Below are positions 14,076 through 37,407 of a DNA stretch of 64,000 nucleotides, piece by piece; position 1 is the first letter of the stretch; each line of letters starts with the position of its first letter. A program made the translations under genes and the position numbers. The DNA is from a virus, in the IMG/VR virus record IMGVR_UViG_3300020429_000529, positions 326,762-390,761 of that record; one strand, given 5' to 3'. A model generated the notes under the pieces. It was not told the DNA's origin and did no database searches. It was given only the letters and a program-made list of their open reading frames with translations.

Positions 14076-14149
14076 TGCCTGCTTAGCTCAGTTGGTAGAG
14101 CATTGGTTTTGTAAACCAACGGTCGTCGGTTCGAGTCCGACAGTAGGCT
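14076..14149 (+). tRNA. tRNA-Thr(UGU)
   Basis: gcctgct/agtaggc acceptor, anticodon arm ttggt-UUUGUAA-accaa, T-arm gtcggTTCGAGTccgac. Confidence 0.85.
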
Positions 14150-14176
14150 TTGTTAGAGAAGTTGAAAGGACATACT

Positions 14177-14500: not shown

Positions 14501-14501
14501 T

Positions 14502-15041: not shown

Positions 15042-15053
15042 CAGGAAATAGCC

Positions 15054-15389
15054 ATGGAGCCTCATGTATTTGAAGCCGAGAAGCATCTTCGCAGACACGG
15101 CCTTAGCTACAGTCAGAACCTCTATGGCTATTCAGAGCGGTCGAACGCTTACCTCAATCTGTTGACGGCTCCGAGCCTGCAAGCCTCCAACTACAGGTCC
15201 AAGTTTGGGTACTACGATCGTTTGATCGTTACTCAGGGGACGATCGAGTTCGAGGACGGGAAGATCAAGAACGAAGTCGATTCGCTGAACTGCCGTGAAT
15301 CACTGAGCGCGCATCCACTGAACGCCGACTCAGTGAGAGACATAGCGGCAGTAGCCGAGGGGTCAGAGGTAGATCCCAAGGGCGGTTGA
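15054..15389 (+). CDS. hypothetical protein
   Basis: 111-aa ORF, weak RBS. Confidence 0.4.
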   Translation: MEPHVFEAEKHLRRHGLSYSQNLYGYSERSNAYLNLLTAPSLQASNYRSKFGYYDRLIVTQGTIEFEDGKIKNEVDSLNCRESLSAHPLNADSVRDIAAVAEGSEVDPKGG

Positions 15390-15683
15390 GGGGCGTCTCA
15401 TTCCTCTCAAACTTGTTCTCTCGCCATCATCTCTGTTGACCATCGTGTACGGCAGAGTTACTTGAAGGGTTGAGGCGTGCGTCATCTTTAGATGACGGGT
15501 GAGAGATTCTTTCACGCTGGTAGATAGGAACCTCTGCGCGTAGTCAATGCCAAAGCGCAAAGCTTCACAACCCAACTGATAAGCGACGGGCGTAAGACCG
15601 TCGCAAATGCCGAGCGAAGCGAGGCATGACAGGGCGCGCAGAAGCGCACTGAAGCGCGCAGGTGCGGGCCAAGAGCCAAACAT
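15363..15683 (-). CDS. hypothetical protein (low confidence)
   Basis: Minus ORF trimmed to an internal Met to avoid overlapping tRNA-Met; Ala/Leu/Arg-rich, possibly a GC-frame artefact. Confidence 0.25.
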   Translation of the reverse strand: MFGSWPAPARFSALLRALSCLASLGICDGLTPVAYQLGCEALRFGIDYAQRFLSTSVKESLTRHLKMTHASTLQVTLPYTMVNRDDGERTSLRGMRRPSTALGIYL

Positions 15684-15724
15684 GAAGTGGTTTGCAAAGT
15701 CTTCGAAGAGAAGTGGAAAACGAT

Positions 15725-15796
15725 TGCCGATATGGTGTAACAGGTAGCACAGCGCTCTCATAAGGCGTTAGTCCCAGTTCAAATCTGGGTATCGGT
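15725..15796 (+). tRNA. tRNA-Met(CAU) (initiator, elongator or Ile2-type not resolved)
   Basis: gccgata/tatcggt acceptor, anticodon arm gcgct-CUCAUAA-ggcgt, T-arm cccagTTCAAATctggg. Confidence 0.8.
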
Positions 15797-15798
15797 AT

Positions 15799-15873
15799 TG
15801 TGGCTGAAACCGAAGTGGCCGAGGTACTTGCCTGTGAAGCAAGTTATTAGCGGGTTCGAGTCCCGTCAGTCAC
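15799..15873 (+). tRNA. tRNA-His(GUG)-like (no encoded G-1; -1 is T)
   Basis: gtggctg/cagtcac acceptor, 3-bp D-stem with 11-nt loop, anticodon arm cttgc-CUGUGAA-gcaag. Confidence 0.65.
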
Positions 15874-15878
15874 CCTTT

Positions 15879-15950
15879 TAGGGCGGTAGTGTAATTGGCA
15901 ACACTACAGATTTTGATTCTGTCATTCTGGGTTCGAGTCCCGGTCGCCCT
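15879..15950 (+). tRNA. tRNA-Gln(UUG), second copy
   Basis: agggcgg/tcgccct acceptor, anticodon arm acaga-UUUUGAU-tctgt, T-arm ctgggTTCGAGTcccgg. Confidence 0.7.
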
Positions 15951-16230
15951 GTTAAAACCAAGAGACCCTGCTGCTCGTCAGCAACAGGGTCTTCAAACGG
16001 CGGGATGAACTCTACGGACCTTGGACACTATTAACCAGGCTGGTCGCCCCAAGGTCATGTTTCTCCTGCTTACGCAGGCAATCCCTTGGTTTGACGAAGG
16101 CTGCTTTCAAGCCTTCATGATCACTGCCTTCGGCCTTCACCGACTCCGTTGAGCAGCTTGGTCTGCTCTACCGTCCTGCTCCTTGGTACGGACGGCGCAC
16201 GTGGATTGTAGCAGATTTTGTTTCACCTGT

Positions 16231-16301
16231 TGGGGGTGTGATGTAATGGAAGCATCTGAGGCGTTGAACCTCGGCGCGGGAGTTCGATTCTCTCCGCCCC
16301 T
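16231..16301 (+). tRNA. tRNA, anticodon uncertain (loop CGUUGAA with G33; UUG if canonical)
   Basis: gggggtg/cgcccct acceptor, atgt/gcat D-stem, T-arm gggagTTCGATTctctc. Confidence 0.5.
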
Positions 16302-16324
16302 ATTTCTGACGAAGGAGACCCGAG

Positions 16325-17068
16325 ATGATAGACTTTGAACGAGGCGCAAAAGCCACAGGTACAAAGTTCTACTTTCTGACAGGCAACGATGCCCTCAGAG
16401 AGTTGCAACTCTGTATGAAGATGATCGAGTTTCATGCCGAACGAGGATACGAGCCGGTCATTCCGCCGTATCTCGTCAACAAGAAGACATGCGAGATGGC
16501 TGGTATCCTTCCTCGCTTCGAGGGAGACTTCTACGAGACGCAGGACGGGTTCGTTCTGATTCCGACCGCAGAAACGCCCCTCGTCGGTTTTCGCGCCAAC
16601 GAGATCATCCCCGAAGAAGAACTCCCGCTCAAGTATGTCGCCTTCTCGCCCTGTTTCCGCAGAGAGGCTGGCGCAGCGGGGAAGAAGGACAAGGGCCTCA
16701 AGAGGGTCCACCAGTTCCACAAGATCGAACTGTTCGTCATCTGCAAGCCCGAAGACTCGGAGCGGCTCCATGAGGAGATGACGGCTCAGGTCGAAGAGCT
16801 TCTTGATGAACTGGGCGTCGAGCATCGAAGGATCGAGCTTGACGAGAACGATCGTCCCCCAACGTCGGCCAAGACGTATGACATCGAGGTTCGAGCAGGA
16901 GAAGAATGGCTTGAAGTCTCTTCGATCTCGAACACGCTGGATCGGCAGGCAAAGCCCGCTCAGATCCGTTATCGGCCACGACCGCAGGCGAAACCCGTCA
17001 AGTGTCATATCTTGAACGGTTCGGGTGTCGCGCTGCCTCGGCTGACTCTTGCGATGTTGGGTGGATGA
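16325..17068 (+). CDS. seryl-tRNA synthetase catalytic core (class II), lacking the N-terminal tRNA-binding arm
   Basis: GAAGGAGAC RBS; GTKFYFLTG...GYEPVIPPYLV, FSPCFRREAGAAGKKDKGLKRVHQFHKIELF (motif 2) and the GSG motif region; the ORF starts about 25 nt after a tRNA. Confidence 0.75.
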   Translation: MIDFERGAKATGTKFYFLTGNDALRELQLCMKMIEFHAERGYEPVIPPYLVNKKTCEMAGILPRFEGDFYETQDGFVLIPTAETPLVGFRANEIIPEEELPLKYVAFSPCFRREAGAAGKKDKGLKRVHQFHKIELFVICKPEDSERLHEEMTAQVEELLDELGVEHRRIELDENDRPPTSAKTYDIEVRAGEEWLEVSSISNTLDRQAKPAQIRYRPRPQAKPVKCHILNGSGVALPRLTLAMLGG

Positions 17069-17098
17069 ATGGCAAGATCAGGGCCAGGTGGCCGATAC

Positions 17099-17170
17099 GC
17101 TCCCTAAGCATAGTAGGAGATGCACTCGCCTCGTAAGCGAGAGAAACCAGTTCGAATCTGGTAGGGAGCT
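17099..17170 (+). tRNA. tRNA-Thr(CGU), second copy
   Basis: gctccct/agggagc acceptor, anticodon arm ctcgc-CUCGUAA-gcgag. Confidence 0.8.
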
Positions 17171-17174
17171 TTCT

Positions 17175-17375
17175 ATGGCGCGCAAACTTACAATCGCAGA
17201 GGCGAAAGAGATCGTGCCAGAAAGCGAGATCATGGGCAAGCTTCCTTTGTTCCCTCTCAAGAAGGGCGGAGGCAAGCTCACAGAAGAAGAACTTGACAAT
17301 CTGATCGAGCATGTTTGGATCTCGGTCGCTGAAGAAAAGCTGGCAAAACAGCAGAATACAAATGGGAAGAATTGA
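17175..17375 (+). CDS. hypothetical small protein
   Basis: ATG just after the tRNA 3' end (whose sequence supplies a GGGAG RBS); 66 aa. Confidence 0.45.
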   Translation: MARKLTIAEAKEIVPESEIMGKLPLFPLKKGGGKLTEEELDNLIEHVWISVAEEKLAKQQNTNGKN

Positions 17376-17712
17376 TTCCACACTCGACTTCGAGATAGCA
17401 AATGTCTGGATCTCTCTTCATGAGGTGGTCGGCGACATTGCTTACGAAGAAAACGCCGATAAGAGAAAGAACCTGTTCGACAAGTATCTTTACCTGGATC
17501 GGCGTCTGCATCTGATGATGTGTGCCCTTAAGGACGGATGGGAAAAGTTCTCGTTCGAGAGGATGCACGAAGAGCGAAAGAACCTTTGCGCCGCAGACTA
17601 CTGGCGGTTCAAGGAGCTTTGGGATTTGCCGATGCCCGAAATCTTCAAGAGACATGAAGAGAAGCGGGTTGCGGAGATAGAGAAGAGAAGGAAGGGCGGC
17701 GAACATTGGTGA
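17362..17712 (+). CDS. hypothetical protein
   Basis: ATG...TGA overlap with the upstream gene; C-terminus overlaps tRNA-Ser by about 23 nt. Confidence 0.4.
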   Translation: MGRIDSTLDFEIANVWISLHEVVGDIAYEENADKRKNLFDKYLYLDRRLHLMMCALKDGWEKFSFERMHEERKNLCAADYWRFKELWDLPMPEIFKRHEEKRVAEIEKRRKGGEHW

Positions 17713-17780
17713 GTCGCATCCGCTTGGAAAGCGGACGGTCCTCGCGAGAGGGCCTGAGGGTTCGATTCCCTTCCCTTCCG
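17690..17780 (+). tRNA. tRNA-Ser(GGA)
   Basis: ggaaggg/cccttcc acceptor, anticodon arm tccgc-UUGGAAA-gcgga, 20-nt variable arm, T-arm gagggTTCGATTccctt. Confidence 0.8.
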
Positions 17781-17796
17781 CTTTGATAGAGATTCC

Positions 17797-18129
17797 ATGC
17801 CCAAGCAAACTTACATAACTCCAAAGTGTTGTAAGGAGGCAGACAACAACGCAGTTGTTCTCTCGGGCAGGGAATGGGAGTCAGACGAAGACGCCGTAAG
17901 CATCAAGCCGAAATGGGTTGTCCCTGTTTTCAAGGGAGAGTATTACGGGTTGATGGAGGTAAGCTTCTGTCCGTTTTGCGGCAAAGACCTGCCTGATGTA
18001 GAACTTGATCCGACAATTGATTCGAGCAAGATCTACAAGTTTGACGATGACTACTGCGGGAACTGCGGCGAGCGAAACAGGACATGCTCTTGTTTGCAAC
18101 CCGAGTTTCGATGGAAACCGATTGGATAG
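17797..18129 (+). CDS. Cys-rich (zinc-binding?) hypothetical protein
   Basis: CPFCG...CGNCG...CSC motifs; the stop codon is the tRNA's U8-A9-G10. Confidence 0.5.
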   Translation: MPKQTYITPKCCKEADNNAVVLSGREWESDEDAVSIKPKWVVPVFKGEYYGLMEVSFCPFCGKDLPDVELDPTIDSSKIYKFDDDYCGNCGERNRTCSCLQPEFRWKPIG

Positions 18130-18217
18130 GAGGCAACTGATGGTTCGTTGCATCTGCCTGCTAAGCAGACGTGCCCTGTAAACCAGGGCACCGAGGGTTC
18201 GAGTCCCTTCCTATCCG
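18124..18217 (+). tRNA. tRNA-Ser(GCU)
   Basis: ggatagg/cctatcc acceptor, anticodon arm tctgc-CUGCUAA-gcaga, long variable arm gtgccctgtaaaccagggcac. Confidence 0.8.
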
Positions 18218-18333
18218 CTTTGATTTACCTGTTGGGCATATCGCTTGGATTCTTGGCGTTAGCTGTCGTGATTTACGCCATCGTTAGCGCCATGTCTGGC
18301 CGATATGCAAGCAGCGTACCAGAGGGAGAAGTC

Positions 18334-18534
18334 ATGTCAGAAGATCAGAACACTCCGAAAGAGTTCGAACTGTACCGAGACAACGATGGAGAGTTCCGTT
18401 GGAGGCTTCGAGCCCGAAACGGTCGAGTCATCGCTTCCTCGGGAGAAGGCTACAAGAACAAGGCTGACGCCGAACATGCGATCGGCCTGGTCAAGAACGC
18501 TTCAGCAGCAACAGTAGTAGAGGATCTGACATGA
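18334..18534 (+). CDS. DUF1508/YegP-like protein
   Basis: GAGGGAGAAG RBS; FELYRDNDGEFRWRLRARNGRVIASSGEGYKNKADAEHAI matches the YegP repeat; an upstream in-frame TM-like segment would require a non-ATG start. Confidence 0.55.
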   Translation: MSEDQNTPKEFELYRDNDGEFRWRLRARNGRVIASSGEGYKNKADAEHAIGLVKNASAATVVEDLT

Positions 18535-18734
18535 ACAACGACATCACAAGAGATGAAAACGGCGAACCTGTTGTATACGAAGGCGACATGGTTTCCAAGC
18601 CTGTCGAGGGATCAAAGGGCCGAGCCTTTACGATGGAAGATGCCATCAAGTATCTCAACAGACCGAGAGGCACTCGTAAGAATGCCATAGAGAACAAGCG
18701 CCGCTACAAGCAGCGCCCTAAGAAGTCTCGATAA
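18531..18734 (+). CDS. hypothetical basic protein
   Basis: ATGA overlap with the upstream stop; 67 aa. Confidence 0.5.
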   Translation: MNNDITRDENGEPVVYEGDMVSKPVEGSKGRAFTMEDAIKYLNRPRGTRKNAIENKRRYKQRPKKSR

Positions 18735-18737
18735 CAT

Positions 18738-18822
18738 TTGGATGGGCCAACATTGGCGTGTGAAGCTGTCTTGAAAACAGTCATGGGTTCATAGCCCTTG
18801 AGGGTTCGACTCCCTCCCCATC
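18738..18822 (+). tRNA. tRNA-Ser(UGA)
   Basis: ggatggg/cccatcc acceptor, anticodon arm gctgt-CUUGAAA-acagt, long variable arm. Confidence 0.8.
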
Positions 18823-18860
18823 CGCTTATATTGAAAACCCGCTCTAATCGGAGGATGCGT

Positions 18861-19250
18861 ATGAAGTCTCTCAAGTATCTCTCGCCAGAAAAACGCGCCA
18901 TCAAGATCAGTAACGGAGCCTTTCGAGGGCTCACAGTTGACCTGGAAGCCTTCCCAAACAGCAGCTTCCAAGACGATCTCCAAGAAGGCAAATGCTCTGA
19001 AGTCTCCTTGGTCTTCCTAAGACCAGACATTCAGAAAGACGACGAGGGATACGTCACGGTCCCGATCGACAGAGAGACGCAGCGAGCCTACAACCGAGCG
19101 GCTCAGACAAGAGCAGATGTCTGCGGAAGATGCAGGCACAAAACAAAGGGCCTGATCGAAGCCTACAAGTTCGATCGCAAGACGGGCGAGTTCGTAGAGA
19201 GTACGAGCGCAACCCCTTACTCCGAGAGACCATTTCTTCTGGTCGCATGA
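18861..19250 (+). CDS. hypothetical protein
   Basis: First ATG with a GGAGGA RBS after the tRNA, within ORF 18798-19250. Confidence 0.5.
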   Translation: MKSLKYLSPEKRAIKISNGAFRGLTVDLEAFPNSSFQDDLQEGKCSEVSLVFLRPDIQKDDEGYVTVPIDRETQRAYNRAAQTRADVCGRCRHKTKGLIEAYKFDRKTGEFVESTSATPYSERPFLLVA

Positions 19251-19579
19251 AGATCTACTGCGACATCGATGGAACGCTCACAGATGAGCCGTTCAAGAAA
19301 TGGGGCAAGCCCAAGCAGGAGCGGATCGATAAGCTGAAGCAGCTTATCCAAGAAGGCCATCAGGTCATTCTTTGGTCGGGCGGAGGAACGAGATATGCCC
19401 GACAGTTTGCCAAGAAGTATGGCATCAGGGCGACGGCTGCTGTTGGTAAGCCAGATGTCATCATTGATGACAACCCCAAGATCCGCCCAACGAAGAGAAC
19501 GACATATCTGTCTCCCGAGCAGTTTGAATCGCAGGACATCGATTCGGGAGACAGATGGATAGATCACATTGGAAGGTAG
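19247..19579 (+). CDS. HAD-superfamily hydrolase-like protein
   Basis: ATGA overlap; MKIYCDIDGTLTD...ILWSGGG...GKPDVIIDDN. Confidence 0.65.
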   Translation: MKIYCDIDGTLTDEPFKKWGKPKQERIDKLKQLIQEGHQVILWSGGGTRYARQFAKKYGIRATAAVGKPDVIIDDNPKIRPTKRTTYLSPEQFESQDIDSGDRWIDHIGR

Positions 19580-19664
19580 GCGACTGCCGGTTCGTCGCAC
19601 CTGTTTCGAAAACAGACGTGCCCTGTAGCCCAGGGCACCGGGGGTTCGACTCCCCCACCTTCCG
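19571..19664 (+). tRNA. tRNA-Ser(CGA)
   Basis: ggaaggt/accttcc acceptor, anticodon arm ctgt-UUCGAAA-acag, long variable arm gtgccctgtagcccagggcac. Confidence 0.75.
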
Positions 19665-19742
19665 CTTTCTGAGAAGGATTTTATCGAAACCTGAAGTATA
19701 GATTGTCCTCGCAGTTCAAATCCGCTGCGATTTGGAGGATAG

Positions 19743-20705
19743 ATGCTTGGGGAAAATGTTCGAAAGATTCCTTTCCACCCTATACCTACAAACCCCATCG
19801 CAACAAACGCCAACACCAAAAACCTGTTCGATAGCGATCCGACAGCCGAGAAAAAGCCAACCCTTAGAAAGACAACAGAAGGCAAACAGCCCTTTGTTGC
19901 GTATTGGCTCATCGGAGGAGCCTCAAACAATGCCAGCCTGAGGCGCATTGGTTGGGGAGTCGCAACAAGAGGTTGGAACGAGTTCATACAAGAGAAAATC
20001 GTTCCTCAAATTCAGGTCGGAGTTCGCAGATTCCATCTTCACAACCCATTTGGCCTTGACGCATCAGGCCCTATGCCAGCCGATCAATACATCAAAGCTG
20101 TTGAGCAGGGACTTGATCTTGTCTATGGCAACTTTGTTGAAGCGTGGAAGCCAATCGCCGACAATCCGAACTTTGAAGTTACAGCCTACCTTGGCAAGTT
20201 GCCTGATTCGGCTATCTTCAATGAACTGATCGGGTTGAAAGATTCATCAGGCTGGATGAAGAGACTGACCGAATCATATCAGGCTGTCATGGAAGCGGGA
20301 ATGTCTATTGGCTTTGACGCTATGGCAATTGCAGAAGACAGCGATGAATCGTATCTCGCTTACGACTTGATTGACAAGCTTTGTCAGCTAACGGGTCGCA
20401 GAACGTACATCGAGGCGACTCCGAAGAAGAGAGATGAGCATCTGACGGGCAGAAACATCTTTGTCATTGATAGCACATGGAGAACTCGCCTGACTCTCCC
20501 CGCTTTTGCGCATGACGAGGATCTATCAGGCGAGATCGTAAGACTTGCTGTCAAGCCGAGATCAGAAACAAGGACTACGCTTGAGTGGTGTCTTGGTATC
20601 GGAGAAGAGATTCTTGCCGATGGTCACACCTTCTGCCCCTCTCAAGGGTGGCAGCTTTCGATGGATGAGTTGGCGCATCTGCTTCGGATGTTGAGGATTC
20701 TTTAG
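19743..20705 (+). CDS. hypothetical protein, paralog family A
   Basis: GGAGGA RBS; RRFHLHNPFGLDASGPM / VTAYLGKLPD motifs shared with 4043, 38401 and 39861. Confidence 0.7.
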   Translation: MLGENVRKIPFHPIPTNPIATNANTKNLFDSDPTAEKKPTLRKTTEGKQPFVAYWLIGGASNNASLRRIGWGVATRGWNEFIQEKIVPQIQVGVRRFHLHNPFGLDASGPMPADQYIKAVEQGLDLVYGNFVEAWKPIADNPNFEVTAYLGKLPDSAIFNELIGLKDSSGWMKRLTESYQAVMEAGMSIGFDAMAIAEDSDESYLAYDLIDKLCQLTGRRTYIEATPKKRDEHLTGRNIFVIDSTWRTRLTLPAFAHDEDLSGEIVRLAVKPRSETRTTLEWCLGIGEEILADGHTFCPSQGWQLSMDELAHLLRMLRIL

Positions 20706-21046
20706 TCAAGGTCAGGCCAAGTTTGAAACGGCAAATCATGTTCGGTGCGAAGTTCGTTGATCCAGTCTCTATGAGTGCCGGTGATTCGCCAGAACTTGCG
20801 TAGCTGAGCATCTTGCGATGCGTCTTTTTCTGTGTTGTCTACAATGGCATCGAGCGTTTGTTGCATGAGGGCCATGTCGGTACGAAGATCAGCCGCATCA
20901 TCGTTGAGGTCGTTGATTCTGGTGAGGGACCATGTAAAGAGTCCGCTGAGAATGAGAATAAGCAGCCCGAGCAAGGACTGGATGACTTGATCTGGTTTCA
21001 TTGCCATTTGAGAGACGCCTCCGTATGAGTTATTGGGATCACTCAT
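20702..21046 (-). CDS. hypothetical membrane/coiled-coil protein
   Basis: 114-aa minus ORF with one hydrophobic segment; weak RBS. Confidence 0.4.
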   Translation of the reverse strand: MSDPNNSYGGVSQMAMKPDQVIQSLLGLLILILSGLFTWSLTRINDLNDDAADLRTDMALMQQTLDAIVDNTEKDASQDAQLRKFWRITGTHRDWINELRTEHDLPFQTWPDLD

Positions 21047-21081
21047 ACTTGGGCAGGAAAACTGAGAATCCCTTCTGATAA

Positions 21082-21106
21082 GGCCGGGTGCCCGAGCGGT
21101 TAGGGG
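21082..21106 (+). other. tRNA 5' fragment (acceptor ggccggg + Tyr-type D-arm cccgagcggttagggg)
   Basis: Acceptor strand pairs with the 3' fragment at 21974-21980 (cccggtc); no anticodon or T-arm follows. Confidence 0.45.
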
Positions 21107-21181
21107 TTGGATGAAGGAATGATAGTCAACTAATCGAATACCTATAAATCGTCGATATACACGATAGATAGGAGTTCGATT

Positions 21182-21859
21182 ATGAGACAGAAAACCAAGG
21201 AGCGAAGTCAGGCTATCGATCTTCGCAAGCAGGGTAAATCGCTATCAGAGATTCAAGAAAAGCTTGGCGTTGCTCGCAGCACCGTTAGCGTTTGGGTTAG
21301 AGATGTTGAGCTTTCTGATGAACAGAGAAACAGGCTCGATAGCAGAAAACCAGCAAAGCCCGAGGCTTTTTATCAGCAAAGATCTGAAGCATATAGAGCC
21401 AAGCGACAAGAGTATCAACAGCGAGGTAGGGATCTTGCTCGCAAATTTGCATCTGATCGATTGTTCATAGCAGGATGCATGCTTTATTGGGCAGAAGGGT
21501 CAAAGGCAAAGAACTCCGTCATATTCTGTAACTCAGATGCAGACATGATGAGAATGTTCATTCGGTTTCTCTTGAAATACTTCGATGTCACAAAACATGA
21601 CATTCGAGCAAGATGCAACTTCTATACGGATATTCATTCTCAGGATGAGGTAGAGTCTTATTGGCAATCGAACCTTTCATTGCCTGAAAGTTCTTTCACC
21701 AAAAGCGTTGTTGATTACAACAATCGATACAGCAAGAGACAGGGCAAGCTTGAGTACGGAACCTGTTCAATTTCAATACATAGTACCGAGCTTGTTCAGA
21801 TTATCTTTGGTTCTATTTCTGAGATCGCTGAAATAGAAGGCGAGAAATGGTTAGACTGA
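21182..21859 (+). CDS. HTH + LAGLIDADG-like homing endonuclease (tentative)
   Basis: N-terminal helix-turn-helix (SLSEIQEKLGVARSTVSVW); IAGCMLYWAEGSK resembles a single LAGLIDADG motif; lies between the two tRNA fragments. Confidence 0.45.
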   Translation: MRQKTKERSQAIDLRKQGKSLSEIQEKLGVARSTVSVWVRDVELSDEQRNRLDSRKPAKPEAFYQQRSEAYRAKRQEYQQRGRDLARKFASDRLFIAGCMLYWAEGSKAKNSVIFCNSDADMMRMFIRFLLKYFDVTKHDIRARCNFYTDIHSQDEVESYWQSNLSLPESSFTKSVVDYNNRYSKRQGKLEYGTCSISIHSTELVQIIFGSISEIAEIEGEKWLD

Positions 21860-21860
21860 T

Positions 21861-21945
21861 GCCCGTATGGCCGAGTGGCGAAGGCGGCGGATTGCAAATC
21901 CGCTGAGGCTTGACCTCCACGTTGGTTCGAATCCAACTGCGGGCT
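21861..21945 (+). tRNA. Ser-like class II tRNA body with anticodon GCA (Cys codons)
   Basis: gcccgta/tgcgggc acceptor, Ser-type D-arm ggccgagtggcgaaggc, anticodon arm gcgga-UUGCAAA-tccgc, 17-nt variable arm, T-arm gttggTTCGAATccaac. Confidence 0.6.
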
Positions 21946-21981
21946 TTGAAGACTACGAGGGTTCGAATCCCTCCCCGGTCT
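21946..21981 (+). other. tRNA 3' fragment (T-arm gagggTTCGAATccctc + acceptor cccggtc)
   Basis: Pairs with the 5' fragment at 21082; no anticodon arm upstream. Confidence 0.45.
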
Positions 21982-21988
21982 TTTGAAT

Positions 21989-22062
21989 GGCCTCTGGTCC
22001 GCTTGGAGCGGGACTCGGTTGCAACCCGAGTTGAATATCTGGTTCGAATCCAGCAGGGGTCT
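21989..22062 (+). tRNA. tRNA-Cys(GCA)
   Basis: ggcctct/aggggtc acceptor, anticodon arm ctcgg-UUGCAAC-ccgag, T-loop TTCGAAT. Confidence 0.7.
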
Positions 22063-22064
22063 TT

Positions 22065-22340
22065 ATGAGCGAAGTTCCAGAAGAATATCGTATCTCGCCT
22101 GAAAAGGCGGAAGAGATGGTCGATGACGCCATCCGAGAGGGCGACCTTGAGGGCTTTTACGAGGCAGTTTGCCCATGCGGAGAGATTTGCGGCATGCATT
22201 TTCACTCTGTCATTGGCGGCGAGCCTCCGAAGCCGAGCAAATACATCGCTTGCCCTTCTTGTCATCGGGTAGGCTTCAAGGATGGCATCGAGTGGAAGTA
22301 TGTCCCTCCGATCTTGGAGCAGGACGATGAGGTTGCATGA
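22065..22340 (+). CDS. Cys-rich hypothetical protein
   Basis: CPCGEICGMH...CPSCH motifs; starts 3 nt after tRNA-Cys. Confidence 0.5.
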   Translation: MSEVPEEYRISPEKAEEMVDDAIREGDLEGFYEAVCPCGEICGMHFHSVIGGEPPKPSKYIACPSCHRVGFKDGIEWKYVPPILEQDDEVA

Positions 22341-22615
22341 ACAGCGTCATCTACGAGACCTCTGAGGGCTACAGGACGCACGTTGGCATTCAGGACGGCA
22401 CAGAGTATGGCGGTCCCTTTCCGACGCTCACAGAGGCTCAGGACGACTGCTGGAAGACAGAGAAGATCATGAACGGAAACGACATCGACGTTGATGCGAT
22501 TCCGATTATGCGCGGGTCTCTTGGAGATAAAGGCCCCGACAGAATCCCGGGAGAACTGTCGGACGCCAAACGAGAGGGTTCGAATCCCTTGACCCGCTTT
22601 ATGAGACCGATTTGA
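22337..22615 (+). CDS. hypothetical protein (3' end contains a tRNA-like T-arm/acceptor sequence)
   Basis: ATGA overlap; the C-terminal EGSNPLTRF is coded by gagggTTCGAATcccttgacccgc, which pairs with gcgggtc at 22512. Confidence 0.3.
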   Translation: MNSVIYETSEGYRTHVGIQDGTEYGGPFPTLTEAQDDCWKTEKIMNGNDIDVDAIPIMRGSLGDKGPDRIPGELSDAKREGSNPLTRFMRPI

Positions 22616-22616
22616 T

Positions 22617-22688
22617 GTGGGTGTAGCTCAGCGGTAGAGCGCCAGCTTGCCAAGTTGGATGTCGAGGGTTCAAATCCCTTTACCCACT
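22617..22688 (+). tRNA. tRNA-Gly(GCC), second copy
   Basis: gtgggtg/tacccac acceptor, anticodon arm ccagc-UUGCCAA-gttgg, T-arm gagggTTCAAATccctt. Confidence 0.8.
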
Positions 22689-22692
22689 TTTC

Positions 22693-23091
22693 ATGGACAA
22701 ATGCGAATGTCAAGAACCTGATGCTTGCTACTATCCTGCAATCAACGAGGATGGTTGGAAGTGTTTGAACTGCATGAAAACCTTGGGTTTTCGACCAGAC
22801 CTTGATCGAGAGTTCATTCACGAGAAGGTCGAGGGCATCATGCAGGATATGCAGATGTCTAAGCTTGCATACTTCTCAAACAGTACCGAAGGGCATATGA
22901 TCGCAGCGCAGGTTGCGAGCGAATGTTCTCGTCAGAATCTCTACGATCAGGCGACGATCATTCTTGAGATCATGCGGGTCATTCAGCCAGATAAATCCCT
23001 GTTTTGGCAGTCAAAGGCCTCTGGCGCTATGGCGGAAACTTTAGATGTTGCAAAACGGGAGGAAGTTTGCGCTGATTGGTGGGAGAACTGA
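22693..23091 (+). CDS. hypothetical Cys-rich protein
   Basis: 132 aa; CECQEPDACYYP...CLNC. Confidence 0.55.
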   Translation: MDKCECQEPDACYYPAINEDGWKCLNCMKTLGFRPDLDREFIHEKVEGIMQDMQMSKLAYFSNSTEGHMIAAQVASECSRQNLYDQATIILEIMRVIQPDKSLFWQSKASGAMAETLDVAKREEVCADWWEN

Positions 23092-23118
23092 TTAGCCCTC
23101 AAAATAAGGAGCTAATCA

Positions 23119-23907
23119 ATGAGAGTATCAAATGGATTAGTAGTCCTGTTCGATGAAAACGGACAGGACATCGGCGGCGTTGGAGATCCAATGAATCTCA
23201 CGCCCTCTGGTTCGGCCTTTCTAACGGACGGTCCCGCCACCAAAGTCATCAGCGCTTGTAAGGCGACGAATGAGGTTACGATCGAGGCTTGGGCCACTCC
23301 GGTAAACCTGACTGACTCTGGCCCCGCTCGTATCATCACGTTGTCCAAAGATGCAGGCGCTCGAAACTTCACGATAGGTCAAGAAGCAACCGTTTATGAA
23401 TGGCGTCTGCGAACGCAGGATACGCAGTCTAACGGACAGCCGTATGTAGAGCTTGGAGCCGTTCGTCTTCAGACTCAGCATCTCGTGTTGGTCAACGACA
23501 ACAATGCAAATGTCATTCTGTACGTTGATGGTCAAGAGATTCATCGAGAGATTCGTCCCGGCGGTCTTTCAACATGGGACAATAGTTACCGACTGGCGAT
23601 AGGCGATGAGATTTCTCGCGACAGACCTTGGGCGGGCACGTTTCATCTCGGAGGCGTTTACAACAGAGCGCTGACTGAGGCTGAAGTTCAGCAGAACTTT
23701 GCTGCGGGGCCCGATGGCGAACAAGAACCGCCCGAGCCGCCAGAGCCGCCTCATGACTATCTGGTACAGAATGTTGGAGCAGAGTGTTCTCTTTACATGC
23801 CGTCGTCAGCCAGCGGCGCAAGACGTAGAACGGCAAAAGGAAGAACCTACCCGGCGTATGCTGATAGCTGTATCTATTCGTATGGGACGCTATACGGAAG
23901 ATCGTAA
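23119..23907 (+). CDS. LamG/concanavalin A-like lectin domain protein
   Basis: AAGGAG RBS; LVLVNDNNANVILYVDGQEI...WAGTFHLGGVYNRALTEAEVQQNF is a LamG-type signature. Confidence 0.7.
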   Translation: MRVSNGLVVLFDENGQDIGGVGDPMNLTPSGSAFLTDGPATKVISACKATNEVTIEAWATPVNLTDSGPARIITLSKDAGARNFTIGQEATVYEWRLRTQDTQSNGQPYVELGAVRLQTQHLVLVNDNNANVILYVDGQEIHREIRPGGLSTWDNSYRLAIGDEISRDRPWAGTFHLGGVYNRALTEAEVQQNFAAGPDGEQEPPEPPEPPHDYLVQNVGAECSLYMPSSASGARRRTAKGRTYPAYADSCIYSYGTLYGRS

Positions 23908-23942
23908 AGGATTCGGGCTTTACTGCTTTGTATAGAGAGCGA

Positions 23943-24101
23943 TGAAGATCGCTGTCACTCTACAACTTCAGGCTTGCATCGAGTTCGCTCACGAAGACGA
24001 ATACTCAGAGACCCTGTTCCACATGATACAGCATCTTGAGGAACACGGGTTTTCTGTTAATATCGTTTCCGAAGAGAAGGTCGAGTCTCAGGACTCGTAA
24101 C
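23943..24101 (+). CDS. small hypothetical protein (52 aa)
   Basis: Short ORF in an otherwise noncoding gap; weak RBS. Confidence 0.25.
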
Positions 24102-24297
24102 TCCCTGCTTGCAATCTGAGACTGCAATTCAGGCATTGCTGACCGCTATCGGTCTTTTCTCTATTCTACCAGAATAGTTTCAGAAAAAAGACGAGGATGT
24201 ATCCTTGTCGCCCTGAATAGGTTGGATGGTAACTCGCTGGTAGCGTGCATATCCATTCGGCCAAAGAAGCAACATATGCTTTTCAGGGAGATCGTAC

Positions 24298-25320
24298 ATG
24301 GCTAATCCATCATTCGATCAAATTTCTGCGCTTCTGCAGAACATCAGTATACTGTCAGGAACATCGTCGTCGCTTCATTCTGAGCTTTCATCCATAGCTT
24401 CGGAACTTAAAGGGCGAGAAGATAGTCGTCAGCCTCGTATCGGAAAACCATACAAGTCAGACATTGATTTGACGAGCGCTATTGAGAAGGCCCAATCGTT
24501 GCTAATCGAATCTGGTAGTCTTAGTAGCAACTTTGTAGATCTCATCAAGATCATTCAAGATAGGCCTGATGAGCCAGTAGTTTCAGGTTGGACACTTGAA
24601 CCGTCAACAAGAGTTTGGATGTCGGTCAACATGCCGTTGTATTACGGGGACCGACCGGGCTTTCCGTTGCTCAGAGAGCATATCGATCTTGCGAACCAAC
24701 TGAATGCAGGTTTGTTGCTCAACAATCTGTATGGGCAAAGAACTGGTCATCATTACGATGCGGGGTGGCCCGAGAGCAAGATCGAAGAGATCGAAGCCGA
24801 GTTTTCTCGGTACTCTGGCGCAGCAATACAGCTTTACTTGTGCATCAAAGAACGTCTCGAAGACGGATCGCTGATTGACGTAGATGATGATCGAGTAAGG
24901 GATCACTGGATCCCGTTGGTTGAGCAGCTACGGGGCTGGATAGGAGAGGAGCCCGCTATCGATATTGGAATCGATGTTGGTTCTGCGAATCCTTCGAGAT
25001 GGAAAGATGTGCATGAGAGATTGCTTGCTCCGAACGGTGTCATGAGAACTGTTCTTGAGGCATCTGTAAGAGACAGCAACGGATTGCCTGCTCTCGACGT
25101 TCCTCAAGAGTTCCTTCATCAGCACATATTGGCGAGATGGGGTTCCGTTGATCCGTTGCCAACTCTTGAGACGCCTGGTTCGGTATTGCTGTGGATGACG
25201 AATCATGCATGGCAGAATGAGGCCAACAAGCAGGGCGTCATCGAGCAGTCTTGGGAAAAGGGATATGCTCTTGCTCTCGAAGCGGAAGATCTTGAGCAGT
25301 TCTCTCACCTGTTGATTTGA
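24298..25320 (+). CDS. hypothetical protein
   Basis: GGGAGA RBS; 340 aa. Confidence 0.65.
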   Translation: MANPSFDQISALLQNISILSGTSSSLHSELSSIASELKGREDSRQPRIGKPYKSDIDLTSAIEKAQSLLIESGSLSSNFVDLIKIIQDRPDEPVVSGWTLEPSTRVWMSVNMPLYYGDRPGFPLLREHIDLANQLNAGLLLNNLYGQRTGHHYDAGWPESKIEEIEAEFSRYSGAAIQLYLCIKERLEDGSLIDVDDDRVRDHWIPLVEQLRGWIGEEPAIDIGIDVGSANPSRWKDVHERLLAPNGVMRTVLEASVRDSNGLPALDVPQEFLHQHILARWGSVDPLPTLETPGSVLLWMTNHAWQNEANKQGVIEQSWEKGYALALEAEDLEQFSHLLI

Positions 25321-25411
25321 GTTTCGGAGCCTCAAGGCGGAAACCTTTGGGCTCCATTGCGGTGTATTGGTAGATGCCAGGTGGCTTTTCTGCCGATACA
25401 ATGCGCATCGA

Positions 25412-25482
25412 GCGAGATTGATGTAGTGGTAACATGCCTGCCTTCCAAGCAGATCTCAGGGGTTCGAGTCCCCTATCTCGCA
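25412..25482 (+). tRNA. tRNA-Gly(UCC)
   Basis: gcgagat/atctcgc acceptor, anticodon arm ctgc-CUUCCAA-gcag, T-arm aggggTTCGAGTcccct. Confidence 0.75.
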
Positions 25483-25484
25483 TT

Positions 25485-25904
25485 ATGACAAAACCAATGA
25501 AATGCATCATCTGCGAAAAAGAACTGGAACCAGTTTCAGAGACTTCTCATATGCAGCCTTACGGAGGGGGAGAGGTCAAGGTCTCTTTCCACTATGGGAG
25601 CCGTTTCGATTGGCTCGGATCTCAGAGAGGAATCGAAGACCCCAACGCTCCCGTTCAACCTGATCCTATCGCAAAGATCTTCGGCAAGAAGAGCGACAAG
25701 ATGGTTCGGGTTATATCCGAAGAGCATCCGGGCACAACCGAGCCTGTTGATGGCGCTCTCAATCATGAGAAGCGGGCCATTCAACTGACAAGCTGCTCTC
25801 ACATCTACGGCGTCATGTGCGATGACTGTTTCGAGGCGAAGGCTCATCTTTTCCAGGGTTTCGTCAGACCGCCAACTCCCAAACTCAAGTTGACCGTCGA
25901 ATGA
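25485..25904 (+). CDS. hypothetical Cys-containing protein
   Basis: First ATG after the tRNA within ORF 25434-25904. Confidence 0.45.
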   Translation: MTKPMKCIICEKELEPVSETSHMQPYGGGEVKVSFHYGSRFDWLGSQRGIEDPNAPVQPDPIAKIFGKKSDKMVRVISEEHPGTTEPVDGALNHEKRAIQLTSCSHIYGVMCDDCFEAKAHLFQGFVRPPTPKLKLTVE

Positions 25905-26050
25905 CAGAAGAACAGCTACATGACAAGATCAAAGAATGGCATAACTCCAATTCAGAGTTGACCATTTATGAGTATCTTGGTTGGACCCGAGAAGAGTATG
26001 CTCGTTGGATAGAAACCTGCGAGATGCCAGATCGTATTACGCCTCCTTAG
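25901..26050 (+). CDS. small hypothetical protein (49 aa)
   Basis: ATGA overlap with the upstream stop; its TAG stop is the tRNA's U8-A9-G10. Confidence 0.35.
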   Translation: MTEEQLHDKIKEWHNSNSELTIYEYLGWTREEYARWIETCEMPDRITPP

Positions 26051-26111
26051 TGTCAACGCAGCACGCTCCCCTTGTAAGGAAGTAGTGTCGGTTCAAGTCC
26101 GGCAGGAGGCT
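26041..26111 (+). tRNA. tRNA, anticodon tentatively UGU (loop CUUGUAA; anticodon stem has a mismatch)
   Basis: gcctcct/aggaggc acceptor, T-arm gtcggTTCAAGTccggc. Confidence 0.55.
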
Positions 26112-26157: not shown

Positions 26158-26181
26158 TACTTCTTTGACAAGTTACTGTCG

Positions 26182-34640: not shown

Positions 34641-34749
34641 CTTGCAGGTGAATCGGAAAGGGCCTATACTCCGTGGACCTCTGGCGGACTAAGGCCGAAA
34701 AAGCCGACCACTGACAGAGGAATCGTCCTGACTACGCATGTATAGGGAC

Positions 34750-34761
34750 AAGCCTCTTTGA
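34750..34761 (+). promoter_or_regulatory. CTCTTTGACAAC motif copy immediately upstream of the tmRNA 5' end
   Basis: Related to the motif copies at 1817, 11548 and 26157. Confidence 0.3.
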
Positions 34762-34767
34762 CAACCT

Positions 34768-35118
34768 GGGGGTGATATGGAATCGACCGAATGATGTAGG
34801 TTGATGATCGCGAGTCGGGGATGCATGCTCAGGCCCCGTTATCAAGGTATGCACAAATTAGTTGCCAACAGCAACACCCTCCGCATGGCTGCTTAATCAG
34901 CCTGCTCGCAACCCGAAGACACCGATATTCGGGAAGCGAAAGACCATCGGGTTAGGCATCGTCTTCAACGCCTGAGGATTCGATGACCGAAACTAAAAGG
35001 GCTGCTCCGAAGGTCATGCTGTCGCTGGCAGGACTGAGGCTAAGATAAATCAGCGAATACACTCGTAGAGGTCTCTGCTGACCCATTCGACACCGGGGTT
35101 CGAGTCCCCGCACCTCCA
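34768..35118 (+). ncRNA. ssrA: tmRNA (ssrA), tag reading frame ANSNTLRMAA*
   Basis: The 5' end GGGGGUGAUAUGGAAUCGACCG resembles the tmRNA consensus GGGGCUGAUUCUGGAUUCGACGGG. The 3' end ccgggguucgaguccccgcaccucca pairs with the 5' acceptor with G3:U70. The internal ORF gcc aac agc aac acc ctc cgc atg gct gct taa gives the tag. Confidence 0.8.
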
Positions 35119-35126
35119 CTTCAGAA

Positions 35127-35151
35127 AGGCCCGCCGCAAGGCGGGTTTTTC
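35127..35151 (+). terminator. rho-independent terminator (GCAA tetraloop) after the tmRNA; shared with the convergent minus gene
   Basis: gcccgccgcaaggcggg hairpin followed by TTTTT. Confidence 0.7.
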
Positions 35152-35654
35152 TATGCGCCCTGCTCATTGAGCCAAGCATCGTGCCTGGCTTGTATTGCCT
35201 CGCAAGCAGCATCGGCTCTCTTCTGCGCCTGCTCTCGACCCTCAGGGCCTTGGTAGATCTTCGAATCAGGAGCGTTCTCAATAGAGAACGTGTTTGATCC
35301 GTCGATGGGGAAACGAGAAGGCCCATCGGGGCCGAGCATGGTGGGAATGCCATCAGCGATACGCATGCCAGTTTCAGCAGCAACCTGCTCCGCTACTTCT
35401 CTCTTGTCTGCGGGGATTGAAATGACAAACCATGTCATCTCTTCCCATTTGATCTGAAAGAACTGGAACTCATCGTTGTCAGGCGTGCCTGGTACAAAGT
35501 TTTCGTACTCAAGCTTCATGCAGAACCAGTTTACGCATGGTCTGTTCGCCATGACAATGATATTGAACCGATTTTCGCTGTTGCAGAACTCGGTGATTTC
35601 AGCGAGCGTTGTCGGTTGAAACTGAACAGGCGAATCTTCAGGTACAGAAACCAT
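35151..35654 (-). CDS. hypothetical protein
   Basis: Start set at an internal Met with AGGAGA RBS; the longer ORF-track version would overlap the AAA+ gene by 106 nt. Confidence 0.6.
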   Translation of the reverse strand: MVSVPEDSPVQFQPTTLAEITEFCNSENRFNIIVMANRPCVNWFCMKLEYENFVPGTPDNDEFQFFQIKWEEMTWFVISIPADKREVAEQVAAETGMRIADGIPTMLGPDGPSRFPIDGSNTFSIENAPDSKIYQGPEGREQAQKRADAACEAIQARHDAWLNEQGA

Positions 35655-35733: not shown

Positions 35734-37407
35734 TCAGGAGGTAGCATCGTCGGCGGTGGTTCCAGCGCCGACAAGCGTATCCTTGCTACCCGCAGTGACT
35801 TCCTTGACGACCACCTCGACCTGATCGGGGTGGATGCCAAGTTCCTTGACGGCGGCTTCGGCTCGCTCGGCCATTTCCTTCTGAGCCTCCTCAGAGGAAA
35901 GGGGTCCGCTGCCGTCCTGAGTCATGGCAAGACCGACCTTGCCAGCGATGAGCCCCATGATGGGCGGAGGAATGATGCCTCCGAGGGGCGAGCGAGCGGC
36001 GATGACCGAACCGATGCCAGCGCCGAGCGAAGCCAGTCCGACTTCCATGGCCGAAGGACCATCGCCCTTCGCGCCATCCATCAGGTCGAGGTGAGGCTTC
36101 ATGCCGTCGAAGGCATCTCGCAGATGCTTCGCATTGACATTGCCCTCGATCTCGTCGTACTCTTCGAGAGCGATGAGCTTGGCTCGCTCGACGCACTCTC
36201 GAATCGTCGCAGGGATCTGCCCCTGCAGAGCCTCGGCAGCAGCATCGATATCGATGTTCTCGGTCAGCAGGGAGCCGCCGTACTGCTTGATGAGGCGAGC
36301 CGCAGCCGCCTGGTCCGGCGGTTCGATCGGAACGACCGCATCGAGACGACCGGGACGGACCATCGCCTTGTTGATCTGCTCGGGATGGTTGGTCGAGACA
36401 ACGGTGATGATCTCGCTGTTCTTGAACTCAACGCCATCGATCGTGTTGAGGATCTTGTTGAGTTCGTCGGTGCGGCCCTGGTTCGTCGCCTTGTCAACAT
36501 CTTCGGCGAAGATGACGCAGGGAGCGTACAGCTTGGCGTAGCGGAGAGCAAGCGCCAGATCGTTGACATCTTCCAGGTACAGGAAGGTCCAGCCGTTGTC
36601 CACGCACTTGCGAGCGGTGACCTTGGCCGTCAGCGTCTTGCCGCAGCCGTATGGACCCTTGAGCAGAACGCCTCGCTTGAGCGGAATGCGAGCCTTGCGG
36701 CAGCGATCCGTATGCTCGATCGGCGTGAAGAGGCCCTGGCGGATCAGCTTCTCTGCCATCTCGGGCAGAATAAGCTGGTTGACATCGGTGTCGTCGGTGT
36801 CCATGAACTCGGGGGAATCGATGTTCGGGTCGAACGCTCGATCCTCTCGGATCCAGTCGAACTTGACGCGGATGGCCTTGCCCTTGTAGATCGAATGCTC
36901 GCGGAGCATCTGCTGTGTCAGCAGACCGATGTGCTGCGCCTCGGCTTCATCCTTTTTCTTGATGTTGCCAGAGATGACGAAGGCAGGATCAGCCTTTTTG
37001 CGGTGCGGAATGTCGGTTTCGAACATGCCGTCGATGCCCGGAACCTTGAACGAGCCCCACGGAACCTGCATGCGGTCCTCGTCCCTGGGGCCTGTGGGGA
37101 CGGTGATGAGGACCGGCGGACTCCCAGAGTCGAAGAAGTGCTTCGGCGGAGTACGAGTTCCGATCGAATGGCCGTAGCGTTCGAGCAAAGCTCGCTGCAT
37201 AGCGACAGCGCCGTCGAGAGGGAAGCAGGGAATCTCGTGGCTGACGCCGACCATCGTCTCCTGCTCTTCCTGGATCATGTAGAGCGCATCAATTGCTTCT
37301 TGCGTCTCCATTTTCCGAGGTTGATTGGGAAGAACGATCTTCGACCCGTGATGCGCGAGCGCAACACTCTTGAACGGATTCTTCTTTTCCTTTGGCATAG
37401 TGGACAT
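35734..37407 (-). CDS. AAA+ ATPase (single AAA domain, CDC48/FtsH-type fold)
   Basis: Walker A GPYGCGKT, Walker B CVIFAEDVD, sensor and arginine finger region ...VSTNHPEQINKAMVRPGRLD. Confidence 0.8.
   Translation of the reverse strand: MSTMPKEKKNPFKSVALAHHGSKIVLPNQPRKMETQEAIDALYMIQEEQETMVGVSHEIPCFPLDGAVAMQRALLERYGHSIGTRTPPKHFFDSGSPPVLITVPTGPRDEDRMQVPWGSFKVPGIDGMFETDIPHRKKADPAFVISGNIKKKDEAEAQHIGLLTQQMLREHSIYKGKAIRVKFDWIREDRAFDPNIDSPEFMDTDDTDVNQLILPEMAEKLIRQGLFTPIEHTDRCRKARIPLKRGVLLKGPYGCGKTLTAKVTARKCVDNGWTFLYLEDVNDLALALRYAKLYAPCVIFAEDVDKATNQGRTDELNKILNTIDGVEFKNSEIITVVSTNHPEQINKAMVRPGRLDAVVPIEPPDQAAAARLIKQYGGSLLTENIDIDAAAEALQGQIPATIRECVERAKLIALEEYDEIEGNVNAKHLRDAFDGMKPHLDLMDGAKGDGPSAMEVGLASLGAGIGSVIAARSPLGGIIPPPIMGLIAGKVGLAMTQDGSGPLSSEEAQKEMAERAEAAVKELGIHPDQVEVVVKEVTAGSKDTLVGAGTTADDATS

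Follow-up and report, generated by a model that had tools for sequence, protein, structure and literature searches.

A tmRNA gene with a boxA-like leader motif on a tRNA-rich, phage-like element of about 0.5 Mb

Based on a 64,000-nucleotide stretch of the IMG/VR virus record IMGVR_UViG_3300020429_000529 (positions 326,762 to 390,761; the whole of this stretch is called the window), we describe a genuine transfer-messenger RNA (tmRNA) gene that shows all structural hallmarks of a tmRNA. Comparison of sequences makes it likely that this tmRNA is functional, that it resides on a phage-like element of approximately 0.5 Mb and that it was acquired, together with its 5' leader, from a host of the Phycisphaerae type (Planctomycetota). 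The leader carries a short motif that is most likely a boxA, the linear site for NusB/NusE(S10). Huge-phage tmRNAs are already known, and the gene in the window adds a further well-supported case of a probable huge phage with its own ribosome-rescue RNA; the leader motif is the more useful lead of the two.

The sole tmRNA of the window is called by ARAGORN at 34768..35119 on the plus strand with the tag ANSNTLRMAA*, and the Rfam model RF00023 independently matches the same locus at 34768..35121 over its full length (119.2 bits against a gathering score of 47, E 5.5e-46, model positions 1-374 of 374). The tmRNA proposed in the initial annotation, including its tag reading frame, is thus supported at full length by both programs. 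The tmRNAs of four relatives match RF00023 as well (101-116 bits). The tRNA-Ala-like acceptor also proposed there is indeed formed: the strands GGGGGUG and CACCUCC give 7 bp, with G34770-U35115 as the G3:U70 alanine identity pair, and are followed by a discriminator A. G3:U70 is unchanged in 21 of the 21 aligned tmRNAs. In relatives, both partners of acceptor pairs 5-7 have changed (GUG/CAC to CGC/GCG or ACG/CGU). CCA is not encoded in the gene, as CUU comes right after A35118. The strong terminator reported behind the gene corresponds to a hairpin of -22.6 kcal/mol (z -4.74; none of 200 shuffled sequences is as stable), which serves the convergent minus-strand genes too, a called gene on that strand ending at about 35152.

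Covariation provides the strongest evidence for the RNA fold. We aligned five phage-type copies with 16 Planctomycetota tmRNAs (21 sequences) and scored a hand-drawn structure of 80 pairs that covers P1, P2, helix 5, the T-arm and the pseudoknots PK1-PK4. In this alignment 81% of the cells are paired, versus 35-45% in controls in which the partners were slid by 1-3 columns; both-sided changes occur in 45 of the 80 pairs, the covariation score is 0.375 versus 0.07-0.12 in the slid controls, and the observed pairing and covariation values are attained by 0 of 500 shuffles. P1, P2, helix 5, the T-arm and all four pseudoknots are backed by covariation, including the pseudoknot fold on which the initial annotation had made its claim depend. 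The T-arm helix is paired in 100% of the cells with three covarying pairs, the PK1 pair G51-C69 is replaced by A-U or C-G in relatives, and pairing reaches 87-93% in the main stem of PK2 and in the two PK4 stems, every pair of which covaries. The weakest pseudoknot stem is the second stem of PK3 (helix 13), which is 62% paired. The resume codon GCC at 34864 lies downstream of PK1, and the UAA at 34894-34896 falls within the loop of helix 5. In a 98%-identical strain (L280; 12279-12630 of contig ctg12106_378x_c, ENA ERZ25074452) the tmRNA has seven differences, at least four of which keep pairing, including A118G/U136C in helix 5. Alanylation, SmpB binding and trans-translation are predicted activities of this RNA.

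Relatives were found by means of a degenerate DNA pattern for the tag. The identical tag is present on one 488-kb IMG/VR viral contig and on five metagenome contigs, with tmRNAs that are 75-77% identical to the window copy. Across five relatives of approximately 75% overall identity, the DNA of the tag is unchanged save one synonymous change. Both the fold and the tag of this tmRNA are therefore kept by selection. In L280 the tag reads ANSNTLRAAA, the Met codon ATG having become GCG through two substitutions that are accompanied by a compensating U-to-C change in helix 5. The exact tag is absent from 185,579 species genomes when searched with a pattern comprising AGY for Ser, CTN for Leu, CGN for Arg and TAA as the only stop.

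When compared with the chromosomal tmRNAs from the motif scan described below and with 81 viral tmRNAs, the window tmRNA has full-length matches only in Phycisphaeraceae/Phycisphaerales, at 64-67% identity. The tags of these Phycisphaerae tmRNAs are ANSNYALAA, ANSNYAMAA, ANSGYRLAA and ANTQFALAA, and the sequence preceding the resume codon is near-identical (acaaattcagtt GCCAAYAGC in two ANSNYAMAA genomes versus cacaaattagtt GCCAACAGC in the window). In the alignment the phage tag equals a host-type tag with YA swapped for TLR, and it is this middle part of the tag that sets the putative phage clade apart. The ending MAA had initially been singled out as a departure from the usual LAA. It is present, but it is not unusual in this lineage: Phycisphaerales chromosomal tmRNAs include the tag ANSNYAMAA, MAA closes 9 of the 66 tags sampled from bacteria in this analysis and 4 of the 81 from viruses, and the 98% strain has AAA. 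MAA is thus an ordinary variant of the putative host lineage and no oddity. Its occurrence in host-type tags, together with the RAAA of L280, suggests that the hydrophobic-Ala-Ala end is host-derived and not strictly fixed. As this C-terminus fits the form of ssrA-type ClpXP degrons, the tag is probably a signal for degradation by ClpXP. Overall, the tmRNA points to Planctomycetota (Phycisphaerae) as the host phylum of a clade of elements of approximately 0.5 Mb.

The leader motif CTCTTTGACAAC is located at 34754-34765, 2 nt upstream of the mature 5' end of the tmRNA. Its 13-nt form CCTCTTTGACAAC is invariant in every relative, and the remaining upstream DNA is not alignable. A scan of IMG/VR with the pattern TCTTTGACAA-NN-T-GGGG returned five tmRNAs that start exactly at GGGG and have unrelated tags and a very different base composition. 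The same pattern, combined with a minimal tmRNA 5' signature, gave 83 matches in GTDB (one genome per species) versus approximately 9 estimated by chance; ARAGORN calls a tmRNA at 66 of them, and a tmRNA 5' end is visible at several more. About 70 bacterial species, spread over at least eight phyla, thus have the motif directly in front of a tmRNA gene. Most of these loci belong to Phycisphaerae and other Planctomycetota, the others to Myxococcota, Omnitrophota, Acidobacteriota, Desulfobacterota, Bdellovibrionota, Zixibacteria, Gemmatimonadota, one Peregrinibacteria and one Erysipelotrichaceae genome. Four relatives (L002, L189, L192, L193) have a clear predicted TTGAC(A/T)-17-TA(A/G)ACT promoter that ends 7-9 nt before the motif, and at the bacterial loci -10-like hexamers peak 7-14 nt upstream of it. 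With such promoters just upstream, the motif would make up essentially the transcribed 5' leader of the pre-tmRNA. The motif that was initially noted in front of the gene is accordingly present, yet it is to be described as a conserved pre-tmRNA leader element matching boxA and not as a -35 box.

Two side observations concern other viral records. In the 153-kb record IMGVR_UViG_3300022723_000207 (L033), the motif is present in two copies separated by 600 nt, each followed by the first ~30 nt of the tmRNA (3804-3835 and 4405-4436); only the second copy runs on into a full tmRNA, and the motif is also found ~10 nt before a ribosome-binding site at 3023. Permuted (two-piece) genes account for more than half of the IMG/VR tmRNAs sampled by a generic 5' pattern (L069-L188), and in these the GGGG of the acceptor piece is directly preceded by a conserved ...(c/t)tt(c/t)tgat.

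The resemblance to boxA is based on several features. The gamma-proteobacterial boxA consensus is GYTCTTTAANA (PMC5725501), and the sequence differs between phyla. The window copy CCTCTTTGACA agrees with 9 of the 11 consensus positions, and the common bacterial tmRNA-leader form G-Y-TCTTTGACA agrees with 10 of 11. Of 79 loci, 46 have G at position -15 and 56 have Y at position -14, followed by TCTTTGACAA, as the boxA consensus predicts, although neither position belonged to the pattern searched for. In E. coli, TGCTCTTTAACAA stands in the rrn leader 149 nt upstream of the 16S gene, and a genome contains seven copies of it. The rrn leaders of five phyla bear TTT(A/G)ANA(A/T) variants, one of which, GTTCTTTGAGAA, differs from the motif by 1 nt. 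Outside the gamma-proteobacteria, TTTGANAA variants are present: Burkholderia has TGCTCTTTAAAAA, Priestia GAACTTTGAAAAC, Arthrobacter GTTGTTTGAGAAC, Paracoccus GCTTTTTGACATT and a Bacteroidota-like contig GTTCTTTGAGAAA. The TTTGA form of boxA is therefore normal in the rrn leaders of other phyla. C-rich, G-poor RNA is the kind of sequence Rho loads on, and the tag region has a C/G ratio of approximately 2 over roughly 100 nt. Nus factors bound to boxA shield long untranslated transcripts such as rRNA, suhB and CRISPR arrays from Rho, and the authors of this extension of the boxA regulon state that non-coding RNAs were not surveyed (PMC5725501, PMC7665894, PMC8632103). In the open-access literature we found no text that links boxA with ssrA or tmRNA, and the presence of a boxA-like motif before tmRNA genes in many phyla and beside phage tRNA clusters appears to be new.

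It is unlikely that the motif is not a boxA but an RNase P 5'-leader determinant or a promoter or operator element acting at the DNA level. Such functions would be in line with its distance of mostly 2-3 nt from the cleavage site, the U at -1 and the A at -4/-5, the hexamer TTGACA that it contains and the -10-like box that often lies 7-14 nt upstream. However, its spacing to the mature end is 0, 2, 3, 5, 6 or 8 nt in other viral tmRNAs, the tRNA leaders of the same window are devoid of it, and the additional conserved G-Y at -15/-14 fits boxA; the spacing between the motif and the -10 box is flexible too. Specific candidate functions were tried and rejected. As a sigma70 -35 box it would end 4 nt before the mature 5' end, placing the transcription start inside the tmRNA, and there is no -10 at 16-18 nt, either here or at three other copies. 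The TA of a Bacteroidetes-type TAnnTTTG -7 element is not conserved. Pairing of the leader with the tmRNA body or trailer yields -8.5 kcal/mol versus -8.7 for shuffled leaders, with scattered targets, and pairing with the resume-codon region, which would be possible in the window, is not conserved. The 0-8 nt spacings and the motif-free tRNA leaders weaken the case for a fixed RNase P register.

The more far-reaching proposal is that tmRNA synthesis widely requires Nus-factor antitermination at boxA, unrecognised so far, in phyla such as Planctomycetota, Myxococcota, Acidobacteriota, Omnitrophota, Desulfobacterota, Bdellovibrionota and Zixibacteria, and that huge phages copied this device together with the gene and re-used it against Rho beside their tRNA clusters; for this proposal we see the chances as evenly balanced. 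If the motif is a boxA, the Nus-factor regulon would reach past rRNA, suhB and CRISPR arrays to tmRNA in many hard-to-study phyla, and it would account for giant phages getting long tRNA-array transcripts past Rho.

The tRNA genes of the window bear on the latter point. The tRNA-rich setting that was claimed at the outset is borne out by 46 tRNA genes called by ARAGORN, 44 of them within 1093-26111 and on the plus strand; the RNA genes of the window all lie on one strand. Together with one gene found by Rfam only, all 47 tRNA genes are devoid of an encoded CCA, and Y-T-T follows the discriminator in nearly all of them as well as in the tmRNA. With their CCA-less ends and Y-U-U trailer, the tRNAs and the tmRNA probably use one processing route, and this suggests a common 3' processing such as RNase Z-type cleavage followed by CCA addition. 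The boxA-like pattern YTCTTTRANAA has five matches in the window versus 0.96 expected, all on the plus strand and four of them intergenic, one before the tmRNA and three next to tRNA clusters. The copies at 11550 and 26161 both come after terminator-like hairpins.

Further details of the array are given as side observations. An exact 18-nt inverted repeat, GTGAATAGAGACGATTTG, is present at 11561-11578 (plus strand) and 26116-26133 (reverse complement), one arm directly after the boxA-like copy at 11550 and the other 27 nt upstream of the copy at 26161, where the last tRNA of the array has just ended. The boxA-like copies at 1820 and 11550 have 22 of 23 nt in common, CGAC(T/C)TCTTTGACAAGTGAATA. 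At 1093-1163 there is a tRNA-like gene with an anticodon loop that ARAGORN could not assign, and the tRNA matched only by Rfam (15800-15874) probably has the anticodon GUG (His). A 247-aa class II aminoacyl-tRNA-synthetase core without an N-terminal arm is encoded at 16325-17068 on the plus strand; its phage matches (phrog_16140, E 5e-70) are of the seryl type, and its gene lies just upstream of a tRNA-Thr and four tRNA-Ser genes. Outside the array, two tRNA genes with a CUA anticodon (52817-52888 and 56907-56982) are of the amber-suppressor type and are labeled Pyl by ARAGORN; the relative L189 has one CUA-anticodon tRNA gene at 5005-5081. Statistics on the open reading frames (ORFs) of the window give no clear signal of TAG recoding, with 16 of 69 called genes ending in TAG.

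Which type of element carries the tmRNA is answered mainly by its relatives. We consider it probable that the element is a huge phage, with a plasmid-like element as the main alternative. A 21.5-kb part of a 502,461-bp ENA contig (ERZ25074452, ctg12106_378x_c) is 97.9% identical to the window, and the same contig encodes a protein 99% identical to the AAA+ ATPase of the window; more distant homologues of this ATPase are found on contigs of 502 and 495 kb. The ATPase gene adjoins the tmRNA in all five relatives, and apart from this gene and a few other coding regions the DNA around their tmRNAs is not alignable. The best phage-record match of the ATPase is to the uncultured 595-kb phage LR756511. 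There is no exact record of the 557-aa AAA product, its start codon being called differently in the record, and a search for ATPase relatives in IMG/VR by peptide patterns had none confirmed. For a 915-aa vault-like protein, a comparison with 50,697 phage records gives matches solely to two huge phages of Al-Shayeb et al., of 735 kb and 462 kb; its gene is not next to the tmRNA in the relatives. At the DNA level the tmRNA with 24 kb around it has no match among the same 50,697 phage records, and there is no tmRNA within 20 kb of the AAA homologues in LR756511 and LR756500.

For huge phages, tmRNAs, SmpB, up to 67 tRNAs and many synthetases were reported, but similar sets of translation genes occur on large putative plasmids, and Bacteroidetes were given as hosts of the largest published huge-phage genomes (Al-Shayeb et al., 2020, PMC7162821). 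Accordingly, the element could be a megaplasmid, another extrachromosomal element or a mis-binned piece of a chromosome with its own ssrA. The absence of a structural phage gene from the window, its cellular-type genes (PAS histidine kinase, response regulators, porin, glycosyltransferases) and the plasmid-borne translation genes just mentioned would agree with this. We nevertheless judge it improbable, as the 488-kb relative is listed as viral in IMG/VR, the AAA ATPase and the vault-like protein match curated huge phages, the tag is found in none of the 185,579 species genomes under the searched codon pattern, no housekeeping gene accompanies the 46 tRNA genes of the window, and the contig size of approximately 0.5 Mb recurs in three relatives.

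Several observations weigh against the proposed picture of a phage-borne tmRNA with a host-derived boxA leader. No virion or packaging gene (capsid, portal, terminase) is located within the 64-kb window, hence the term phage rests on the relatives and the shared genes. The host assignment is drawn from the tmRNA alone, by means of a comparison set that was selected for the motif. The window copy of the motif has C for the consensus G at position 1 and G for the gamma-proteobacterial A at position 8, and the window's own promoter is weak or unclear, below the threshold of the promoter scan. The ssrA of E. coli is without such a leader, and boxA is thus no general tmRNA feature. Finally, the antepenultimate residue of the tag is M or A in near-identical strains, which makes the degron reading uncertain.

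Other genes of the window, which has a G+C content of 49-57%, are described for completeness. The vault-like protein (30797-33544, plus strand) contains Vault repeat, Vault_3 and MVP_shoulder domains and matches solved major vault proteins (MVP; E 7e-26). At a distance of 11 kb from its gene, a WGR-PARP protein is encoded at 44620-46278 (plus strand); in eukaryotic vault particles, MVP pairs with a PARP. A PAS-PAS histidine kinase and two small response-regulator genes (27882-30311, plus strand) make up a complete two-component system. A phosphate-porin-like protein, three DXD glycosyltransferases and an HD_4 hydrolase are also encoded.

Established knowledge on trans-translation, tRNA processing and Nus-factor antitermination allows us to propose how the tmRNA may act. 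The gene would be transcribed from its own nearby promoter, for which the relatives have a clear candidate and the window a weak or unclear one. The leader CCUCUUUGACAAC, as a boxA, would recruit host NusB/NusE(S10), such that Rho does not stop the polymerase on the 350-nt untranslated RNA. RNase P would then cleave behind the leader, at G34768, while the CCA-less 3' end would be trimmed and supplied with CCA, as for the co-resident tRNAs. Host alanyl-tRNA synthetase would charge the tmRNA via G3:U70, and SmpB would bring it to stalled ribosomes. This SmpB is assumed to be that of the host, since neither tblastn of E. coli SmpB against the window nor Pfam on the ORF adjoining the tmRNA revealed an SmpB gene. 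Rescued peptides would receive A-ANSNTLRMAA, with a hydrophobic-Ala-Ala end that resembles the host ClpXP degron. The phage would gain ribosomes that stay free during destruction of host mRNA; more speculatively, amber read-through by the phage suppressor tRNAs would stall more ribosomes at mRNA ends and make a tmRNA useful.

Alternatively, the altered tag (TLR for YA; M or A before the final AA) might change the fate of the tagged proteins or compete with the host tmRNA, e.g., by sparing phage products from adaptor-mediated degradation or by feeding a phage unfoldase such as the neighboring AAA+ ATPase. The strict conservation of the tag within the phage clade, its middle part unlike the host-type ANSNYA(L/M)AA, and the ATPase gene beside the tmRNA in all five relatives could be explained in this way. 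Yet the tag retains the C-terminal hydrophobic-Ala-Ala of the host lineage, members of the AAA family are common in phages without tmRNA (including LR756511 and LR756500 within the 20 kb mentioned above), and shared descent alone can account for the adjacency of both genes, so that both this role and the examples given for it seem doubtful to us. That the tmRNA is a decaying relic or an attachment-site fragment from an integrating phage is extremely improbable and effectively refuted: tmRNA genes are often integration sites (established knowledge; also PMC9951164), but here the gene has its full length as well as a leader and a terminator of its own, no integrase was detected adjoining it, and the covariation among relatives together with the compensatory changes between strains indicates selection for the fold.

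Table 1. Positions of the tmRNA, its parts and associated features in the window.
Feature	Position	Strand	Basis
tmRNA gene, mature RNA of 351 nt to discriminator A	34768..35118	+	ARAGORN, RF00023, covariation on 21 sequences
Acceptor 5' strand GGGGGUG, pairs with 35111-35117	34768..34774	+	sequence reading, alignment
Pseudoknot PK1 (CGGGG/CCCCG and GCAUGC/GUAUGC)	34816..34852	+	helices 6 and 7, covariation
Tag ORF GCC AAC AGC AAC ACC CTC CGC ATG GCT GCT TAA	34864..34896	+	ARAGORN
Helix 5 hairpin, stop codon in loop	34883..34905	+	compensatory A118G/U136C in L280
PK2 34907-34950, PK3 34957-35002, PK4 35017-35055	34907..35055	+	helices 9-15, covariation
T-arm 35094-35110 (loop UUCGAGU), acceptor 3' strand CACCUCC 35111-35117, discriminator A35118	35094..35118	+	
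Intrinsic terminator hairpin, A-tract before, U-tract after	35123..35152	.	folding
boxA-like leader motif CCTCTTTGACAAC (13 nt)	34753..34765	+	invariant in relatives; boxA consensus match
Candidate sigma70-like promoter TTGCAG-17-TATACT (weak, 8 of 12 positions)	34642..34670	+	sequence reading
Second promoter candidate, -10-like TATAGG, 8 nt before the motif	34741-34746	+	sequence reading
Second boxA-like copy TTCTTTGACAA, 16 nt before the tRNA-Phe heading a six-tRNA run	1820..1830	+	
Third boxA-like copy CTCTTTGACAA, after tRNA-Gly and hairpin	11550..11560	+	
Fourth boxA-like copy TTCTTTGACAA, after the last tRNA of the array and its terminator hairpin	26161..26171	+	
tRNA array, 44 genes, all CCA-less, Y-U-U trailer after discriminator	1093..26111	+	ARAGORN, Rfam
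AAA+ ATPase (phrog_10440), tmRNA neighbor kept in all relatives	35734..37407	-	phage-family match, relatives

In comparison with known systems, the RNA has the common architecture of bacterial one-piece tmRNAs (ssrA, RF00023), i.e., a G3:U70 acceptor, T-arm, P2, PK1-PK4 and a stop codon in the helix 5 loop. The tmRNAs of Phycisphaerae are likewise CCA-less with a U-rich trailer, are preceded by the same leader motif and have tags that start with ANSN and end with (L/M)AA. Unlike those, the window gene is located on a tRNA-rich extrachromosomal element of approximately 0.5 Mb, its tag is one residue longer and acceptor pairs 5-7 differ. Among phages, mycobacteriophages of cluster C carry tmRNAs. 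Those of huge phages (PMC7162821) lie beside large tRNA sets and aminoacyl-tRNA synthetase genes, like the window gene on its probable phage, and the window has AAA ATPase and vault-like genes in common with the published phages of 462-735 kb, but it differs from the published huge phages in the inferred host phylum Planctomycetota, in having no SmpB gene within the window and in having no DNA-level match of its tmRNA. Known boxA elements (rrn, lambda nut, suhB, CRISPR leaders) are linear 11-12-nt sequences of the form (G)YTCTTT(A/G)ANAA, located where transcription of a long untranslated RNA begins, in its 5' leader, and the window motif resembles them in being single-stranded and flexible in position. 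In contrast to these elements, it precedes a tmRNA and phage tRNA clusters with no boxB or boxC evident, in a leader of only ~13-20 nt that is predicted to be removed by RNase P.

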